DNA of 15,374 nt from a virus: UHGV virus genome UHGV-0080089. The stretch is one strand, 5' to 3'. This document shows, piece by piece, positions 3,629 through 13,266 of this stretch; position 1 is the stretch's first letter; each line of letters begins with the position of its first letter. Under the pieces are notes generated by a model. The model was not told the origin of the DNA, searched no databases, and saw nothing but the letters and a program-made list of their open reading frames with translations. A program made the position numbers and the translations under genes.

Positions 3629-4570
3629 TCACCCCCTGAATCCTGCCGGGATCTGGCTGTAGTCCACATTGTCGTAACTGGCTTTGAAGTACGGGTCTTC
3701 GCGTTTTTCTGTGTACGTGCTGACGGACGGCGATAAGCGCAGGGAAAGCTCATCCCATTTTTCCCGCAGCTTCGACGGGCTGAGCACGTTACGGCACCAG
3801 AACGGATCGCGGCTGACGCGGCTGTACATCTCGCAGATTTGTTTGTGAGTACGACCATCCTGCACACACATCAGGCGAATTTCGTTTGCCCAGGCTGTCC
3901 AGTTCGGTTCTTTGGGACGAACCACCTCGCCGTCACATTCGGCAGCCTGCTCGTACAGGGCGATGATTTTTTTCCAGAGCCACTGTGCGCAGGTCAAATC
4001 ATCCTGCGTCCCCCACTGGCGCTTTTTAGGGCTGAATACAACCGCATCAGGATGGCGAGTTAAAAAATCCTGTTCAGCCGTCTGCGTGTCCGGTTGCGAA
4101 GCGTCCGGACGAGAAGGTTTTTTATCTGACGGATCATGTTTTGATTTTACTGACGGATCCCCGCCAGATTCTGACGGGTGAAAACCCGCTTTTTTGCCAG
4201 ATTTCGACGCATCAAATTTTGACGGGTCAGATTTTGATGCGTCAGATTTTGACGGGTCAGAATCTGACAGTTGAGAAAATGCCGCTGCCTGAAGCTTCGC
4301 AACGTTAAGCTGATAAACATTCGACGCATTGCGGTTACCCTGGCGACGCGCCTTACGCGTTAACCAGCCTTCTGCTTCCAGCCGTGCGATAGCCGTTCTG
4401 ACGGTACTCATCCCCGCGCCAATCTGACGGGCAATGGTTTCAATTGATGGCCAGCACACACCTTCGTCATTACTGAAATCAGCCAGGCGGGCCATAATTG
4501 CCACGCTGGATAACTTCATGCCTGATGCAGCGCAACCATCCCATACATAGCCGGTTAATTTAGTGCTCAT
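3629..4570 (-). CDS. Phage replication initiation protein (lambda O-like architecture: N-terminal HTH, internal iteron-encoded linker, C-terminal domain)
   Basis: 313 aa; ATG 4570 with SD AGAGGT; N-terminal wHTH (SVAIMARLADFSNDEGVCWPSIETIARQIGAGMSTVRTAIARLEAEGWL); central peptide repeats SDPSKSDASKSDPSKFDASKS encoded by 15-bp DNA direct repeats. Confidence 0.7.
   Translation of the reverse strand: MSTKLTGYVWDGCAASGMKLSSVAIMARLADFSNDEGVCWPSIETIARQIGAGMSTVRTAIARLEAEGWLTRKARRQGNRNASNVYQLNVAKLQAAAFSQLSDSDPSKSDASKSDPSKFDASKSGKKAGFHPSESGGDPSVKSKHDPSDKKPSRPDASQPDTQTAEQDFLTRHPDAVVFSPKKRQWGTQDDLTCAQWLWKKIIALYEQAAECDGEVVRPKEPNWTAWANEIRLMCVQDGRTHKQICEMYSRVSRDPFWCRNVLSPSKLREKWDELSLRLSPSVSTYTEKREDPYFKASYDNVDYSQIPAGFRG
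4122..4273. repeat. Iteron-like direct repeats (~15-bp units AGATTTTGACGGGTC / AGATTTTGATGCGTC) inside the replication gene; candidate replication origin
   Basis: Four contiguous 15-bp units at 4214..4273 (aaattttgacgggtc, agattttgatgcgtc, agattttgacgggtc, agaatctgacagttg) plus spaced copies at 4165..4180 and 4198..4213 and TGACGG cores at 4127 and 4152. Confidence 0.6.
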
Positions 4571-4918: not shown

Positions 4919-5523
4919 GCGTTAGTTTCTCCACAGTCACGACACGCTACGGCGCCCGGAGCTGCACACTCGCGGGCGTCATTACTTTCTGAAATGCAAA
5001 AAATTTTGTAGACCAGTGCTGCATGCTCCTGCAGCTTCGAAATTGAGAGGTAGAGCTCGTCATTAATTGCTGTCTTCTCATGCGGTTCCACTACACCGTC
5101 TTCGATTGCTGAACGAATCTGTTTTGAATAACTGCCGATCTGTTCAATGACTTCCAGCAGACGCTGGTTAATATCGGCGTTGTCCACATCCTCGACGTCA
5201 GGAAGAGACACAAAGACGCCATTTGCAGACTGCGCCACAGCATCAGCAATGAAGTGAGTTCCACCAGCACGTTGCAAAATCATTGCCCATCCCAGCGGGA
5301 AAATCTGATCGCCATCGGCACGAAGGCGGTTAAATAATGCGTTCTCTGTTACATCCAGCCAGTCAGCAGCTTCAGCGTAACCCCCCGGCAACGCTGCGAT
5401 AGTTTTTCTGACAGCTTTCACGTACCACTCAGGCTGTTTGTCTACTTTCCAGTGATGCTTACCCACGGTTAGCCTCATCGTTCTGTGGTTTCTGTTAATC
5501 GATTTATCCATTAGATTTTTCAT
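4915..5523 (-). CDS. Early regulatory protein in the cII position (possibly YdaT-like); C-terminal Cys cluster
   Basis: Track ORF 4915..5580 begins at GTG; first ATG at 5523 (MKNLMDK...) chosen, alternative ATG 5511 overlaps the cro-like stop. Weak SD for both. C-terminus [13 protein letters not shown]. Family assignment is by position after the YdaS-like gene, not sequence. Confidence 0.55.
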
Positions 5524-5704
5524 AAAGCTCAGGTTTAAATGGCAACCGTCCGCAAGTTCTATATGCAGCTTCTGCTGCACGTCCTTTTGGAATTAACTGG
5601 CCCGGACGGTTTCGCCACTGATAAACGGCTTCAGTTGTTATGCCGAAAAAAGCAGCAACTTTCTCAATACTGCCGAAGTAGCTTTCGATATCGTCAGTTG
5701 TCAT
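5504..5704 (-). CDS. Cro-like / YdaS-family HTH regulator
   Basis: 66 aa; ATG 5704 with strong SD (GGAGGG 6 nt upstream); HTH region VAAFFGITTEAVYQWRNRPGQLIPKGRAAEAAYRTCG; divergent from cI across a 97-bp operator region. Confidence 0.75.
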   Translation of the reverse strand: MTTDDIESYFGSIEKVAAFFGITTEAVYQWRNRPGQLIPKGRAAEAAYRTCGRLPFKPELYEKSNG

Positions 5705-5801: not shown

Positions 5802-6428
5802 ATGGAAACGGTTGGTCAGCGTATAAAAGCTCTGAGAAGAGTTACCAGAACGTCCCAGAAAGAATTGGGTAAATTTTGTGGAGTAAGCGACGTTGCTGTG
5901 GGGTACTGGGAGAAAGACATCAATACCCCTGGTGGGGAGGCACTTTCGAAATTAGCGAAGTTCTTCAATACGTCAATAGATTACATTCTTTATGGTGCTG
6001 AGTTTGAAGGCAAACTCGTCACAAACATGCGCAGAGTTCCTGTAATATCGTGGGTTCAGGCTGGGCAGTTTACTGAGTGCAGGGCAGCAGAAGTGTTTAG
6101 TGAAGTGGACAAGTGGGTAGATACATCATTAAAGATTGGTGATAACTCATTTGCATTAGAGGTTAAAGGTGACTCCATGACTAACCCTAATGGCCTCCCA
6201 ACAATACCAGAAGGCGCAACAGTGATTGTAGATCCAGATGCAGAACCTCGTCATGGAAAAATAGTCATCGCTCGACTTGATGGAACAAACGAAGCTACAG
6301 TAAAAAAATTAGTCATCGATGGCCCTCAAAAGTTTTTAGTGCCATTAAATCCTCGGTATCCCAACATCCCTATCAATGGTAATTGCCTTATCATTGGTGT
6401 AGTCAAAGGAGTTCAATACGAACTCTAA
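5802..6428 (+). CDS. cI: CI-type prophage repressor (HTH_XRE + S24 LexA-like peptidase domain)
   Basis: 208 aa; N-terminal HTH (QKELGKFCGVSDVAVGYWEKD); Ala-Gly in VISWVQAGQF; Ser nucleophile in GDSM and Lys in VKKLV with S24 spacing. Confidence 0.9.
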   Translation: METVGQRIKALRRVTRTSQKELGKFCGVSDVAVGYWEKDINTPGGEALSKLAKFFNTSIDYILYGAEFEGKLVTNMRRVPVISWVQAGQFTECRAAEVFSEVDKWVDTSLKIGDNSFALEVKGDSMTNPNGLPTIPEGATVIVDPDAEPRHGKIVIARLDGTNEATVKKLVIDGPQKFLVPLNPRYPNIPINGNCLIIGVVKGVQYEL

Positions 6429-6439
6429 GACCTCTCTTC

Positions 6440-6510
6440 TCTAACTAAGGCACCGAACTAAGAAAAGTTTGGTGTTTTCTCTTGCCATAATAACTAAGTT
6501 AAGTTAGATT
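6440..6510 (+). promoter_or_regulatory. Second operator cluster downstream of cI (OL-like) with candidate plus-strand promoter
   Basis: ACTAAG half-site motifs at 6444..6449, 6457..6462 and 6493..6498; promoter-like -35 TTGCCA (6482..6487), 17-bp spacer, -10 TAGATT (6505..6510). Confidence 0.4.
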
Positions 6511-6675
6511 TTATGTCAAAGATAACGAACAGGCAGGACGCCCACGAAGTAGCCGCCTGGGGCATATGAAGTCCAGGATGATTCGTTAGCAACAAAAAAG
6601 CGCCCTACAGGACGCTTAGCTCTTTAACAATCTGGTCCCCATCAACAAGTAACTGATAACTTGAGGAGATGTGAA

Positions 6676-6882
6676 ATGCACAAAACAGAACCCAAAATCG
6701 TCGCGCCTGGCTACACAGATGAGGAAATTTATGAGTGGATGACAAAGAAGCTGGCAGCTATAAACCAGCTTCGTGAAGTGCTGTCTTATCGACAGGAAAC
6801 AATAGACTCCTTAAAAAAACTGGATCAGGAAATCACGGTTTTATCACAGGATGTTACTTTAGATATTGTGCAGACAAATTAG
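6676..6882 (+). CDS. Hypothetical small protein (68 aa), AT-rich accessory gene downstream of cI
   Basis: ATG 6676 preceded by GAGGAG (6663..6668) at 7-nt spacing; track ORF begins at TTG 6661. No recognisable motif and not arginine-rich; 3' end overlaps the convergent 144-aa gene by 29 bp. Confidence 0.55.
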   Translation: MHKTEPKIVAPGYTDEEIYEWMTKKLAAINQLREVLSYRQETIDSLKKLDQEITVLSQDVTLDIVQTN

Positions 6883-7288
6883 GATCCCATTCATTTTCGT
6901 CAAAATCATCAAAGTGATGAATTTGTGATCTCCAGTCTCGATAATCTAAAAATTTCTGGGCGGTTACGCTTATTTTATCAAGTGTGAGTTCATCCTGAAT
7001 TGAAAGAAGAAGTTCATCAAATTTCATCTCATTAATCTGTTTTGGCATCCAGTGATGCTTCATCAGAATAAGGTGAACCAGAGCCTTTTTCCCATTCAAC
7101 TGATTATAGGGAGTGCCGAATTTCTTCCGGTGCTCATGTAAGACAAGGTCCAAAAGAGTAAGTAATGTTGCCCTTGATTCAACTTTGCTTATTTCGACTG
7201 ATGACACTACCCCACTGATTTCAATGCCCCGATACTTTCCAACATTTTCACAGTGGGATTTGTACAGCGTATAGATATTACCGGACAT
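6854..7288 (-). CDS. Hypothetical protein (144 aa), AT-rich accessory gene convergent with the 68-aa gene
   Basis: ATG 7288 with AAAGGAAAAGAA upstream; about 35% GC versus about 52% in flanking phage genes; acidic C-terminus (HHFDDFDENEWDP); no family recognised. Confidence 0.6.
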   Translation of the reverse strand: MSGNIYTLYKSHCENVGKYRGIEISGVVSSVEISKVESRATLLTLLDLVLHEHRKKFGTPYNQLNGKKALVHLILMKHHWMPKQINEMKFDELLLSIQDELTLDKISVTAQKFLDYRDWRSQIHHFDDFDENEWDPNLSAQYLK

Positions 7289-7303
7289 TTCTTTTCCTTT
7301 TGC

Positions 7304-7352
7304 GTTGTTGGGGATAACCAGATTAACCGAATCCTTGTTGTTGGGGAATAAC
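7304..7352. repeat. Tandem imperfect direct repeat (GTTGTTGGGGATAAC at 7304..7318 and GTTGTTGGGGAATAAC at 7337..7352, ~33-bp period) just upstream of the 144-aa gene
   Basis: Read directly from the sequence; on the minus strand each copy ends in an AAGGA-like element, the second forming the RBS of the 144-aa gene. Confidence 0.5.
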
Positions 7353-7574
7353 TAGGTCCACCTCGCCTGATGTGGCTAAAAGCAGGCACATAACAGCTAA
7401 GTATTTTCAACCAGAGAGAATCCTTAGCGTTGTGGTGAATGCGGCTCAGCGCACGCGGGTTAAGGTTGAGGCTGACAGTCGACCTTCTGTGGATACCCAC
7501 CCGCCTGGTGTGCAACCTTCGCCAGGCACCGGGAGGCACCCGGCACCACAACTTTATGCTGTGTGTAGTCTTGG

Positions 7575-7619
7575 CGGTACCAGCTTGTACCCTTGCTTCC
7601 GGCTGGTACCGTCCTTTTT
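7575..7619 (+). terminator. Candidate intrinsic terminator / attenuator hairpin upstream of the yfdP-like operon
   Basis: 10-bp perfect stem CGGTACCAGC (7575..7584) / GCTGGTACCG (7602..7611), 17-nt loop, then TCC + TTTTT (7615..7619). The loop is long for a canonical terminator. Confidence 0.4.
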
Positions 7620-7756
7620 ACAAAACAGAGAAGAGCATCACCGGACGACGGGCTCATAACCCAATCCATCCGGGCGGCAGTCACCGCAGGTGTTCTTCTC
7701 TGTTTTGTGGAGAAACTAACCGACCTTGCAGGGTCGATATGATGAGGAGCAGCAAA

Positions 7757-8119
7757 ATGGCTAGCGAACGCAGTACTGATGTGCAGGCATTTATCGGGGA
7801 GCTGGACGGCGGCGTATTTGAAACCAAAATCGGCGCAGTTCTCAGTGAAGTCGCTTCCGGTGTGATGAACACGAAAACCAAAGGTAAGGTCTCGCTCAAC
7901 CTGGAAATCGAACCGTTTGATGAGAACCGAGTGAAAATCAAACACAAACTCTCATATGTTCGCCCGACTAACCGCGGGAAAATTTCCGAAGAAGACACCA
8001 CCGAAACGCCGATGTATGTCAATCGCGGTGGTCGCCTGACTATTCTGCAGGAAGACCAGGGACAGTTACTGACTCTTGCCGGTGAACCTGACGGAAAACT
8101 CCGCGCAGCAGGTCGTTAA
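7757..8119 (+). CDS. YfdP-like early-left phage protein (120 aa), function unknown
   Basis: Track ORF 7439..8119 is a long GTG-initiated extension; chosen start ATG 7757 (MASERSTDVQ...) has GAGGAG (7744..7749) at 7-nt spacing. Size and position before the YfdQ-like gene match CPS-53 yfdP. Confidence 0.65.
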   Translation: MASERSTDVQAFIGELDGGVFETKIGAVLSEVASGVMNTKTKGKVSLNLEIEPFDENRVKIKHKLSYVRPTNRGKISEEDTTETPMYVNRGGRLTILQEDQGQLLTLAGEPDGKLRAAGR

Positions 8120-8184: not shown

Positions 8185-9009
8185 ATGTCTCAGAACTTAG
8201 ACGCAACCGCAATTAATCAAATCCATGCCCTTATTTCTGCTCAGGGTGTTAATGAAATTATCAGTAAGATTGGTGCCGATGCTGTGGCATTGCCTGAGAA
8301 TTTCCGCATTCATGATCTGGAAAAATTTAATTTAAATCGCTTCCGTTTCCGTGGTGCGCTTTCCACTGCCAGCATCGATGACTTTACCCGTTATTCTAAA
8401 GATCTTGCAGATGAAGGCACCCGCTGCTTTATCGATGCTGATAATATGCGTGCCGTCAGTGTGCTTAACCTGGGTACTATTGATGAACCAGGTCACGCAG
8501 ATAACACCGCCACACTCAAACTGAAAAAGACAGCACCGTTCTCTGCTCTGTTGTCTGTTAACGGCGAGCGTAACTCCCAGAAGTCACTAGCAGAATGGAT
8601 TGAAGACTGGGCCGACTATCTTGTGGGCTTTGATGCTAATGGTGACGCTATTCAGGCAACAAAAGCGGCTGCGGCTGTCCGTAAAATCACGATTGAAGCA
8701 AACCAGACCGCTGATTTTGAAGATAATGACTTCAGCGGCAAACGCTCCCTGATGGAGTCTGTCGAAGCGAAGACCAAAGACATTATGCCAGTGGCATTTG
8801 AATTTAAATGCGTTCCGTTTGAAGGTCTGAAAGAACGTCCGTTTAAATTACGCCTCAGTATTATCACTGGCGATCGTCCTGTACTGGTTCTGCGCATTAT
8901 TCAGCTGGAGGCGGTGCAGGAAGAAATGGCTAACGAATTTCGTGATCTGCTTGTTGAGAAATTCAAGGACAGCAAAGTAGAAACCTTTATTGGTACTTTC
9001 ACCGCCTGA
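8185..9009 (+). CDS. yfdQ: DUF2303-family protein, YfdQ-like (274 aa)
   Basis: ATG 8185 with SD GAGGA at 6-nt spacing; sequence and length recalled as matching E. coli CPS-53 YfdQ (memory only, not searched). Confidence 0.75.
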
Positions 9010-9021
9010 TTTCATTACTGC

Positions 9022-9043
9022 AAATGCCCCTGCGGGGGCATTT
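9022..9043 (+). terminator. Hairpin downstream of the yfdQ-like gene (possible partial terminator)
   Basis: 9-bp stem AAATGCCCC / GGGGCATTT with 4-nt loop, 13 bp after the stop; T-tract limited to the stem's own 3' TTT. Confidence 0.35.
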
Positions 9044-9136
9044 ATGGAAACGTAATTTACTCAATAATCGCCGGATGGTGAGGGATTCTTTTTGCCAGAA
9101 TTCAGCGCGGTGCAGCGCATATACGTGGAGAACAAA

Positions 9137-11946: not shown

Positions 11947-13266
11947 ATGACTTTTACTATTACACAAGACAGACAATTGGCTTCATTGACCGTTACTAAA
12001 GAAGAAAAAGAAATCTTATTTGCTGTAAAATCTAAAGCTGGGGGAGGACTCTTTATACGTGTTCGTTATGGTAGCGACAATAAAAGCTGGATTTATCGTT
12101 ATCGAATAGCTCAAAAGCCAGCTAAATTAACACTAGGTAGTTACCCTGCCATGGGATTAGCTCAAGCTCGTAAAGCTCATGCGGATGCAATTGAATTAGT
12201 AAGAAAAGGTATAGATCCTCGTCATATTAGAAAAAATGAAAAACAAAAAAATGAACAAATGATTATTTACTCTGAATTATGGAAAGATTGGATAGAATTC
12301 AGAAAGACAAGTAAACCAATTAGCACCAGAACCCTTGCAGATTATGAAGGGACTTATCACCGCCACCTTGAAAAAGCATTAGGAAACCTTCGCATTGACG
12401 AACTTACCAAAAGCGTTATTTTTGAACATCTCAGTAATGTAAGAAAAACCAGTTCTGAAGCAGTTCGTAAAGGATTAATTATTCTAAATATGACTCTTGA
12501 TCATGCCAACTTACAGGGTATGCTTGAGCATAACCCAGCACGACTGCTCAAACCAGCAATGTTTGGTGCATCGATGAATAAACCTCGCGAGCGATGGCTT
12601 CCTGAGAATGAACTCCGGATGCTATGGAAGGCTTTGGATGATGCTACTGTTGGAGGAGGCTCCATTGCATCTGGTGGCTATGGAGTTTCCTCTAGTGTGG
12701 TATTATCTCATTCTGTCGCAAATGCACTCCGTTTGATTATTTTCACAGGAGTGCGCCGCTCTGAAGCGGCACAAATGCGCTGGGATCAAATTAATGGAGA
12801 GCGTTGGACCATACCAGCCACTAAAAATGGGAAAAGCCATATTGTTACTTTACATCCGTATATGCTTTCTTTAATAAAAACACAACGTGAATTCACTGAA
12901 GGTGCATATGTTTTTGGTTCTACTAGCAAACCTGGCTTTCCCATCACAAATGACGCTCTGACTCGCGCGTTAGAAAGGGTTCGCTCTAAGTATCTAGCTG
13001 AACTTACTCCATTTTCTCCTCATGATCTGCGTAGAAGTGTTGCGACTGGATGCGCTGAATACCTTGATGCTCCAGAGCGCCTAATAGAGTTACTGTTAAA
13101 TCATGTACCCAAAGACCGTTTAATACGAACATATCAAGTCGGACAACAAGCTGAAAAATTAAAAAATTTATTTATAGAATGGGGGAATTTTATTATGAAT
13201 AACGTCATTACTGTGCAGAAGAATGCTCCGGATAATGTTATTCATATAAAATTTGGGAACAGATGA
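11947..13266 (+). CDS. int: P4-family tyrosine integrase (DUF4102-type N-terminal domain), about 38% GC
   Basis: Track ORF 11911..13266; preferred start ATG 11947 (MTFTITQDRQ...) with AAAGG SD; N-terminal arm-binding-like region (GGGLFIRVRYGSDNKSWIYRYR...LGSYPAMGLAQARK); catalytic pattern ...GVRRSEA..., HDLRRSVATG, ...LIRTYQVGQ. Confidence 0.85.
   Translation: MTFTITQDRQLASLTVTKEEKEILFAVKSKAGGGLFIRVRYGSDNKSWIYRYRIAQKPAKLTLGSYPAMGLAQARKAHADAIELVRKGIDPRHIRKNEKQKNEQMIIYSELWKDWIEFRKTSKPISTRTLADYEGTYHRHLEKALGNLRIDELTKSVIFEHLSNVRKTSSEAVRKGLIILNMTLDHANLQGMLEHNPARLLKPAMFGASMNKPRERWLPENELRMLWKALDDATVGGGSIASGGYGVSSSVVLSHSVANALRLIIFTGVRRSEAAQMRWDQINGERWTIPATKNGKSHIVTLHPYMLSLIKTQREFTEGAYVFGSTSKPGFPITNDALTRALERVRSKYLAELTPFSPHDLRRSVATGCAEYLDAPERLIELLLNHVPKDRLIRTYQVGQQAEKLKNLFIEWGNFIMNNVITVQKNAPDNVIHIKFGNR

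Follow-up and report, generated by a model that had tools for sequence, protein, structure and literature searches.

An operon-embedded STnc100/PasD-type RNA and a second structured module upstream of yfdP in an SfV-like temperate phage

Results and discussion

The region upstream of yfdP

The UHGV virus genome UHGV-0080089 (15,374 nt, referred to as the window) belongs to the SfV/SfIV/ST64B type of temperate phages or prophages. Between the minus-strand gene of a 144-aa moron protein and the operon running from yfdP to int lies a 468-nt region (7289–7756) that a first-pass annotation had described as GC-rich, structured and non-coding. The region splits into four parts: an upstream part associated with the moron (7289–7357), an RNA unit of ~193–220 nt (7399–7619), a second structured module designated module B (7617–7711), and a small hairpin C together with the ribosome-binding site (RBS) of yfdP. 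The central unit belongs to a known kind of prophage small RNA (sRNA), of which it is an allele embedded in an operon; it is composed of an STnc100/PasD-type core, a linker and a terminator. The layout in Table 1 was compiled from an annotated twin locus in E. coli, Pfam, and the raw sequence; it identifies the plus strand as the direction of early-left (PL) transcription.

Table 1 Features in and around the non-coding region upstream of yfdP (window positions)
Feature	Position	Strand	Evidence or remark
cro-like gene	5504–5704	−	
LexA-type repressor	5802–6428	+	
Putative early-left promoter PL, TTGCCA-17-TAGATT, among ACTAAG-type operator repeats	6482–6510	+	Promoter scan, sequence reading
68-aa open reading frame (ORF)	6676–6882	+	
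144-aa "ECs1072 family" moron	6854–7288	−	
Structured non-coding region	7289–7756		
Two copies of 16-nt direct repeat GTTGTTGGGGAWWAAC	7304–7319, 7337–7352		Upstream of minus-strand 144-aa gene
P0 hairpin GCUAAG...CUUAGC	7399–7425	+	Minimum free energy (MFE) fold; Rfam STnc100 alignment starts at 7399
Pseudoknotted core ("module A")	7429–7552	+	Rfam, model R1, covariation
P1 closing stem	7429–7437/7544–7552	+	
J1/2 AAU	Between P1 and P2	+	
P2	7441–7456	+	
Pseudoknot, AAGGUUG with P4 loop CAACCUU	7463–7469 with 7513–7519	+	
Small hairpin in core	7489–7500	+	
P4	7503–7527	+	
P5 CCGGGAGGCACCCGG	7529–7543	+	
Single-stranded linker UUUAUGCUGUGUGUAGUCUU	7553–7572	+	Sequence comparison
Intrinsic terminator T (stem 7573–7585/7601–7613, U-run 7615–7619)	7573–7619	+	−23 kcal/mol, z = −5.0
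Module B, three-way junction	7617–7711	+	−49.3 kcal/mol, z = −7.3
Module B outer stem, ~23 bp, near-perfect	7617–7639/7689–7711	+	
Module B arm Ba, apex GGGCUCAUAACCC	7650–7662	+	
Module B variable arm Bb	Within 7617–7711	+	
Hairpin C (7721–7726/7731–7736), Shine–Dalgarno GAGGAG (7744–7749), yfdP start ATG (7757)	7719–7759	+	Folding, PGAP
yfdP, yfdQ ... xis, int	From 7757	+	PGAP annotation of identical E. coli locus

The 468-nt region is 100% identical to many E. coli chromosomes, and at least part of it is held by 2782 of 5426 complete E. coli genomes; identity to the phages Kati, vB_EcoS-569R4, vB_EcoM-689R6 and SfIV amounts to 97.7–99.8%. Its elevated GC content was confirmed (0.55 at 7351–7800 versus 0.36–0.41 in the flanks).

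Architecture of the RNA unit

The RNA unit consists of the P0 hairpin, a pseudoknotted core closed by helix P1, a 20-nt linker, and a 13-bp terminator stem followed by U5. Folding of 7399–7625 gave an MFE z-score of −3.1 on the plus strand and −1.3 on the minus strand. Two hairpins one base apart (7503–7527 and 7529–7543) had been recognized in the first-pass annotation and were recovered here within a larger closed fold, as its helices P4 and P5. The three GGCACC motifs listed alongside them (at 7525, 7535 and 7542) are present, but they are not independent repeats, being accounted for by the P5 stem and the 3′ strand of P1. Beyond these elements, the fold contains the P1 closing stem and a pseudoknot, in which the P4 loop pairs with a segment just 3′ of P2, and the second module at 7617–7711 is likewise an addition to the earlier list.

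Conservation of the paired regions across relatives was examined for an alignment of 96 distinct core sequences, in which 98.8% of cells were paired and 10 of 19 pairs showed double (compensatory) changes. Not one of 500 shuffles was as good and no slid register came close; the covariation backs helices P1, P2 and P3. Pseudoknot complementarity of at least 6 nt, formed by differing sequences, was found in 71 of 94 unique copies as compared to ~14.5 expected by chance. It is not seen in the Rfam consensus line printed by cmscan, which cannot display pseudoknots.

A 10-bp-stem hairpin followed by TTTTT (7575–7619) had been suggested earlier as a terminator. Its arms at 7575–7584 and 7602–7611 are 100% complementary, the stem extends to 13 bp, and the resulting strong intrinsic terminator sits on the early-left transcript, as had been proposed. 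The single-stranded linker between core and terminator is kept in ST64B, phiES15 and phiNP although their terminator stems differ; it is a candidate seed or Hfq-binding region. The linker plus terminator (7560–7614) also gave a weak DicF-like match in Rfam (19.4 bits, E 0.26). Membership of DicF (RF00039) was rejected, as this score is far below the cut-off of 48 and the seed differs.

The covariance-model search that the first-pass annotation had called for was performed. At the gathering threshold, Rfam gave no hit in the region. A permissive scan matched the full STnc100 model (RF02076) to 7399–7622 of the plus strand with a sub-threshold score of 43.4 bits (E 9.4e-8). Our own covariance model, R1, which was built from 34 diverse copies, scored 75.8 bits on the window, on the plus strand only.

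This strand preference bears on the earlier suggestion that the minus strand encodes a leader or antitoxin-like RNA partner of the 144-aa gene, in a type III toxin–antitoxin (TA)-like arrangement. Two 16-nt repeats do adjoin the gene upstream and on its own strand (2 matches versus 0.03 expected by chance). The "tandem ~33-bp repeats" reported there were thus in part correct, in that the two motif copies are spaced 33 nt start to start, but they do not constitute a tandem array: none was detected in the region by Tandem Repeats Finder, whereas a ToxIN-like system is expected to carry an array of ~34–36-nt repeats on the toxin strand. Homology to SfV starts only at ~7358, and the repeats therefore belong to the moron cassette and not to the RNA unit. 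The minus-strand fold is no better than shuffles (z = −1.3 to −1.4), G–U pairs seen in the alignments would become C–A mismatches on that strand, and the structured modules occur in SfV, ST64B, phiES15, mEp460 and P1 in the absence of the 144-aa gene. The 144-aa protein itself matches only NF033230 ("ECs1072 family") and phrog_5286 (function unknown); no Pfam or PADLOC (defence/toxin) match was obtained, and none to a known endoribonuclease toxin family. We consider a type III TA-like function extremely unlikely.

The non-coding status of the region was upheld by frame-breaking indels, a stop codon in phiNP, and the covarying helices. A decayed or N-terminally extended protein gene is what existing annotations imply, with SfIV gp34 annotated at 226 aa and a "frameshifted" PGAP pseudogene, and an open frame does extend upstream of yfdP, over 106 codons in the window, 126 codons in ST64B and 81 codons in mEp460. 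Conversely, indels of 1, 1, 1, 6, 13, 1, 1 and 1 nt separate the window from ST64B. Frame-breaking indels lie within the conserved core, and as 1-nt indels flank it, the core would be read in different frames in the two phages. The phiNP frame is closed by a stop five codons ahead of yfdP; the YfdP profile in PHROG adds just ~17 N-terminal residues; and conservation tracks base pairs, not codons. These observations contradict a decayed gene, and the ORFs annotated in SfIV as well as the PGAP pseudogene are best read as artefacts. A search for tRNA or tmRNA found none.

Relationship to STnc100, PasD and sRNA-17

The window element shares with Rfam STnc100 and PasD the helices P1, P2, P4 and P5, the invariant GGUGAAU and CACCGGGAGGCACCCGGCACC, a 3′ intrinsic terminator, and a total length of ~200 nt. 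It differs in P2, which reads GCGGCUCAGCGCACGC as compared to CCCCC...GGGG in canonical copies, and in an extra internal hairpin. Moreover, P0 is located directly 5′ of the core, in the place of the sigma70 promoter that abuts canonical copies, and the window copy resides in the early-left leader whereas STnc100/PasD copies are found between Q and the lysis genes. STnc100 copies are expressed in enterohaemorrhagic E. coli, one of them confirmed by Northern blot (PMC5331693), and PasD is a Northern-validated, abundant and Hfq-associated RNA with many mRNA partners according to RIL-seq (bioRxiv 10.64898/2026.05.13.724894). PasB was rejected as the identity of the window element, since PasB lies in structural operons.

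To survey the spread of the family, sequence patterns were searched in IMG/VR and in a GTDB set comprising one genome for each species. Among the genome matches listed, almost all belong to Enterobacterales (Escherichia, Salmonella, Klebsiella, Citrobacter, Enterobacter, Pantoea, Erwinia, Rahnella and others), and across these the P5 hairpin is almost invariant; a few contigs of metagenome-assembled genomes labelled Acidobacteria or Mucilaginibacter are taken to be contamination. Within the collected set, 112 of 130 distinct copies carry a terminator 20–40 nt after the core. In canonical copies the sigma70 −10 element ends 6–10 nt before GGUGAAU, and 48 of 68 have a strong promoter at this fixed position. 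Having both promoter and terminator of their own, canonical copies are therefore stand-alone, self-terminating sRNA genes. They often form arrays of 2–5 units between a Q-like ORF and lysis genes. In IMG/VR loci L018, L027, L039, L076 and others, 3–5 head-to-tail copies, mostly ~240–260 nt apart and sometimes more, occupy the ~1.5-kb spacer that separates a Q-like ORF from holin/lysozyme.

The window-type subfamily is distinguished by its P2 sequence (GCGGCU.AGCGCACGC) and by its location inside early operons. It is found upstream of yfdP in SfV, SfIV, ST64B and 118970_sal3 and upstream of kil and gam in Cronobacter phiES15, so that the position of the core is conserved across unrelated immunity types. 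The subfamily also includes a core of phage P1 that scores 78 bits (L363 8072–8205; record 70071–70204) and lies inside the C1-controlled ban operon, 29 nt before tciA. This core follows a dicF-like region and two tRNAs, in an unannotated spacer between the opposite-strand ORF upl and tciA. In E. coli K-12 the leader is deleted from prophage CPS-53, and K-12 transcriptomics are therefore uninformative.

A weak match to the core model was also noted in the yfdQ–yfdR spacer (window 9007–9122; 14.7 bits, E 0.07). The same match recurs in K-12, mEp460, SfV and SfIV (E 0.03–0.07), where the spacer is conserved and holds the hairpin AAAUGCCCCUGCGGGGGCAUUU; it is probably due to chance.

The closest experimental reference is sRNA-17 of E. 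coli K1 RS218. This 193-nt RNA stems from an mEp460-like prophage and was mapped by rapid amplification of cDNA ends (RACE) as well as Northern blotting. It has been tied to the survival of E. coli K1 in blood, and no Rfam relative was found by its authors (Sun et al. 2020, PMC7719688). We placed sRNA-17 on mEp460 by means of its published full-length, RACE, and Northern primers, which locate it at L009 3855–4048 on the yfdP strand, from CGUUGUGGUGAAUGCG at the start of helix P1 to the terminator U-tract. Window positions 7428–7619 align with it end to end (140 of 194 positions identical, 72%), and in the mEp460-type allele the position of terminator T is taken by the 3′ end of sRNA-17. Both RNAs are encoded on the same strand as yfdP, in the interval separating that gene from the immunity region or moron; they have in common an identical 5′ stretch of 16 nt, the P1 closing stem, essentially the same terminator, and a length of ~193 nt. 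Their interiors are different. Whereas the window carries the STnc100-type core with its P5 hairpin and P4-loop pseudoknot, sRNA-17 carries a variant that we refer to as the A2 core and that reaches only 19.6 bits with model R1; the linkers differ as well.

The A2 core has the same P1 and GGUGAAUGC start, and a kissing interaction is suggested by the complementarity between its P2 and P5′ loops (GCUGAU/AUCAGC). A further A2-like copy is found upstream of the main core in the P1-like phage RCS47 (L004 ~3740–3830). Together with a hairpin resembling module B, also upstream of the core, this copy falls under the ORFs upl and plp of P1, both of which may be spurious.

Is the core an antiterminator or a sensor?

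The first-pass annotation had named a put-like, cis-acting antitermination element as one candidate. In such a case, the nascent core would bind RNA polymerase and make it resistant to the terminator at 7573–7619 and to later ones, so that a phage lacking N could express its early-left operon. The put RNAs of phage HK022 mediate factor-independent antitermination via the zinc-binding domain of the RNA polymerase β′ subunit. The setting is comparable: the element is found in leaders of long repressor-controlled early operons of phages without a recognizable N gene, it lies directly upstream of a strong terminator that no promoter follows (the scan found no consensus-like promoter between terminator and yfdP), and the near-invariance of P5 among the matches listed suggests binding to a conserved host machine. 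HK022 putL and putR are likewise nascent structured RNAs of early operons with two hairpins one nucleotide apart.

To evaluate this relationship, a covariance model (R2) was built from HK022 putL, putR and four homologues. R2 recovers putL with 96.6 bits and putR with 55.9 bits. With filters switched off, its best match in the window has an E-value of 7.7 and lies at 12483–12548 on the minus strand; none was obtained in 7289–7756 or in 6517–6600. By this measure there is no sequence or structure similarity between put and the core. The put RNAs are ~70 nt long and made of two open stems, while the core spans ~125 nt and is P1-closed and pseudoknotted; put adjoins its promoter, and ~900 nt separate the putative PL from the start of the core, though a terminator does follow the core. 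Each canonical relative starts from a promoter of its own and stops at its own terminator 20–40 nt downstream, right after the element, which would argue against a core that prevents termination. Arrays of these relatives often directly precede lysis genes, and read-through there would kill a lysogen. The positional homologue sRNA-17, finally, is a discrete RNA ending at the matching terminator, and replacement of its interior increased yfdP ~95-fold, with yfdR also up (PMC7719688), i.e. removal of this core raised yfdP rather than lowering it. A put-like function is very unlikely on these grounds.

The core could instead be an aptamer whose ligand is a small molecule or a factor from the host or the phage, and occupancy of the aptamer would set terminator formation in the manner of a riboswitch. 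A closed multi-helix, pseudoknotted fold, in which junction and loop nucleotides are invariant whereas the peripheral helices vary, is in line with such a sensor, as are the location directly ahead of an intrinsic terminator and operon and the presence of P1-type copies in a 5′ untranslated region (UTR). Upon inspection of the window, ST64B and phiES15, no consistent alternative pairing between the core or P1 and the terminator could be identified, and no match to an Rfam riboswitch was obtained. In addition, most family members are stand-alone and have no regulated gene after them. A sensor-type attenuator appears unlikely.

Module B

Module B is found directly after a terminator U-tract and before yfdP in more than 100 phage contigs; P1-like phages contain a shorter version upstream of the core. 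Compensatory changes were identified in 9 of its 38 pairs. The apex of arm Ba is identical over 14 nt (CGGGCUCAUAACCC), three G–C pairs included, to the anticodon stem-loop of the E. coli initiator tRNA (metZ). The motif ACGGG-YUCAUWW-CCC-AAUC occurs in more than 120 phage contigs, and its flanking stems covary. Mimicry related to the ribosomal P site or initiation factor 3 (IF3), or a decoy for VapC-type toxins, are possibilities.

The near-perfect outer stem of ~23 bp is also relevant for another interpretation of the locus, namely that the whole assembly is a purely cis-acting processing or stability element providing RNase III/E sites or protective folds at 3′ or 5′ ends that would separate and stabilise parts of the early-left transcript, any released RNA having no function by itself. 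RNase III prefers long near-perfect duplexes, and the outer stem is of this kind. The core of phage P1 is positioned among RNAs processed from the ban transcript (dicF-like region, tRNAs, trnI), and the lack of an own promoter in the window subfamily is compatible with processing. Conversely, the extreme conservation of P5 and GGUGAAU across a bacterial order exceeds what a processing site needs, and the relatives are abundant Hfq-associated RNAs with many partners. We regard an exclusive processing role as doubtful.

Proposed function of the window element

The interpretation we favour, with moderate confidence, is that 7428–7619 constitutes a terminated leader sRNA with a second role as attenuator of early-left transcription into yfdP–int. 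While the analyses above demonstrate the structure, its strand, the family relationship, the terminator, the positional homology to sRNA-17 and the absence of a relationship to put, we infer the release of a discrete RNA from the window allele, its action in trans, the attenuation, and any role of module B as follows. Transcripts from PL or from a weak local promoter would fold the core co-transcriptionally and mostly stop at 7619, which would release a stable RNA of ~190–220 nt that probably acts in trans like its relatives. The same terminator would attenuate in cis, keeping yfdP through int low unless read-through occurs. In a minority of transcripts, read-through RNA would form module B and express yfdP through int, and the module B duplex just ahead of the yfdP RBS would probably serve processing or translational control.

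The Qin prophage sRNA DicF and the Stx phage sRNA StxS offer a precedent for this concept: both derive from the transcript of a phage operon, through termination or processing. In both cases, an sRNA heads a phage operon under repressor or antiterminator control and ends at an intrinsic terminator that precedes toxic or late genes. Unlike DicF and StxS, the window element features a large structured 5′ domain.

Several observations weigh against a terminated leader sRNA. Firstly, the STnc100 score is below the curated cut-off of 47. Secondly, the window-type subfamily lacks a promoter, as none of 41 copies reaches 9 of 12 consensus matches, so that the 5′ end would have to arise by processing or from a weak promoter. 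Thirdly, target predictions for the linker were unremarkable: the best duplex with the phage's own genes (−30.8 kcal/mol) is within the shuffle range (to −32.3), and a comparison with downstream start sites in six phages gave p = 0.4–0.8. Fourthly, yfdP through int lie behind a strong terminator, which their expression would have to overcome. P1-type copies, moreover, have no terminator and run directly into tciA, a layout that fits a cis-acting 5′-UTR role better than a released sRNA. It should also be noted that the de-repression of yfdP upon mutation of sRNA-17 can be read in more than one way: the mutant retained the terminator hairpin and carried an inserted resistance cassette, and the increase is possibly a cis effect.

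A more far-reaching proposal, which we put forward tentatively and with low confidence, extends the role of the core. Rather than merely scaffolding a base-pairing sRNA, it may be a compact pseudoknotted receptor to which a conserved component of the host binds, such as RNA polymerase, the ribosome or an RNA-binding protein. Lambdoid, SfV-like and P1-like phages would have built this receptor into repressor-controlled early leaders to set read-through or translation. Module B would act jointly with it, by engaging the 30S P site or IF3 or by decoying VapC that cleaves initiator tRNA.

The early-left leader upstream of the region

The putative PL (Table 1) was the sole consensus-like plus-strand promoter upstream of 7289–7756 in the promoter scan, and SfV has PL at the equivalent place. 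The ~70 nt after PL (window 6517–6590; SfV L237 1870–1940) are conserved despite differing operators and immunity. This stretch holds CAGGAUGA, as in the loop of put stem II; the put model gave no match there. Roughly 100 nt after the putative PL, at 6619–6630, an exact rrn-type boxA (GCTCTTTAACAA) is present, for which chance matches in the window were estimated at ~0.002. It is preceded by a hairpin (6598–6617), as in rRNA antitermination leaders. Judged from the motif, this boxA could recruit NusB/NusE and render early-left transcription Rho-resistant; no boxA was found in the leaders of SfV, ST64B, phiES15 and mEp460.

Further downstream, the 68-aa ORF and the 144-aa gene are convergent with an overlap of 29 nt, which places the moron antisense to the PL transcript. 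Terminator-like hairpins on the minus strand were noted at 6772–6747 and 6617–6598. Both proteins belong to PHROGs of unknown function, and neither has a PADLOC match.

Conclusions

The kind of element described here is already known from Rfam STnc100, PasD, and sRNA-17. To our knowledge, the hybrid make-up of the window allele, which links sRNA-17 to STnc100, is new, as are the core pseudoknot, the promoter-less subfamily of early operons, and module B, the apex of which is identical to the initiator-tRNA anticodon stem-loop. Two separate literatures are thereby joined, in that sRNA-17 belongs with STnc100/PasD. The element is widespread, yet annotation pipelines skip the region or place spurious ORFs in it. 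If it is true that the core binds a host machine, it would define a new class of regulatory RNA in temperate phages; otherwise, the window adds one more allele of a prophage sRNA.

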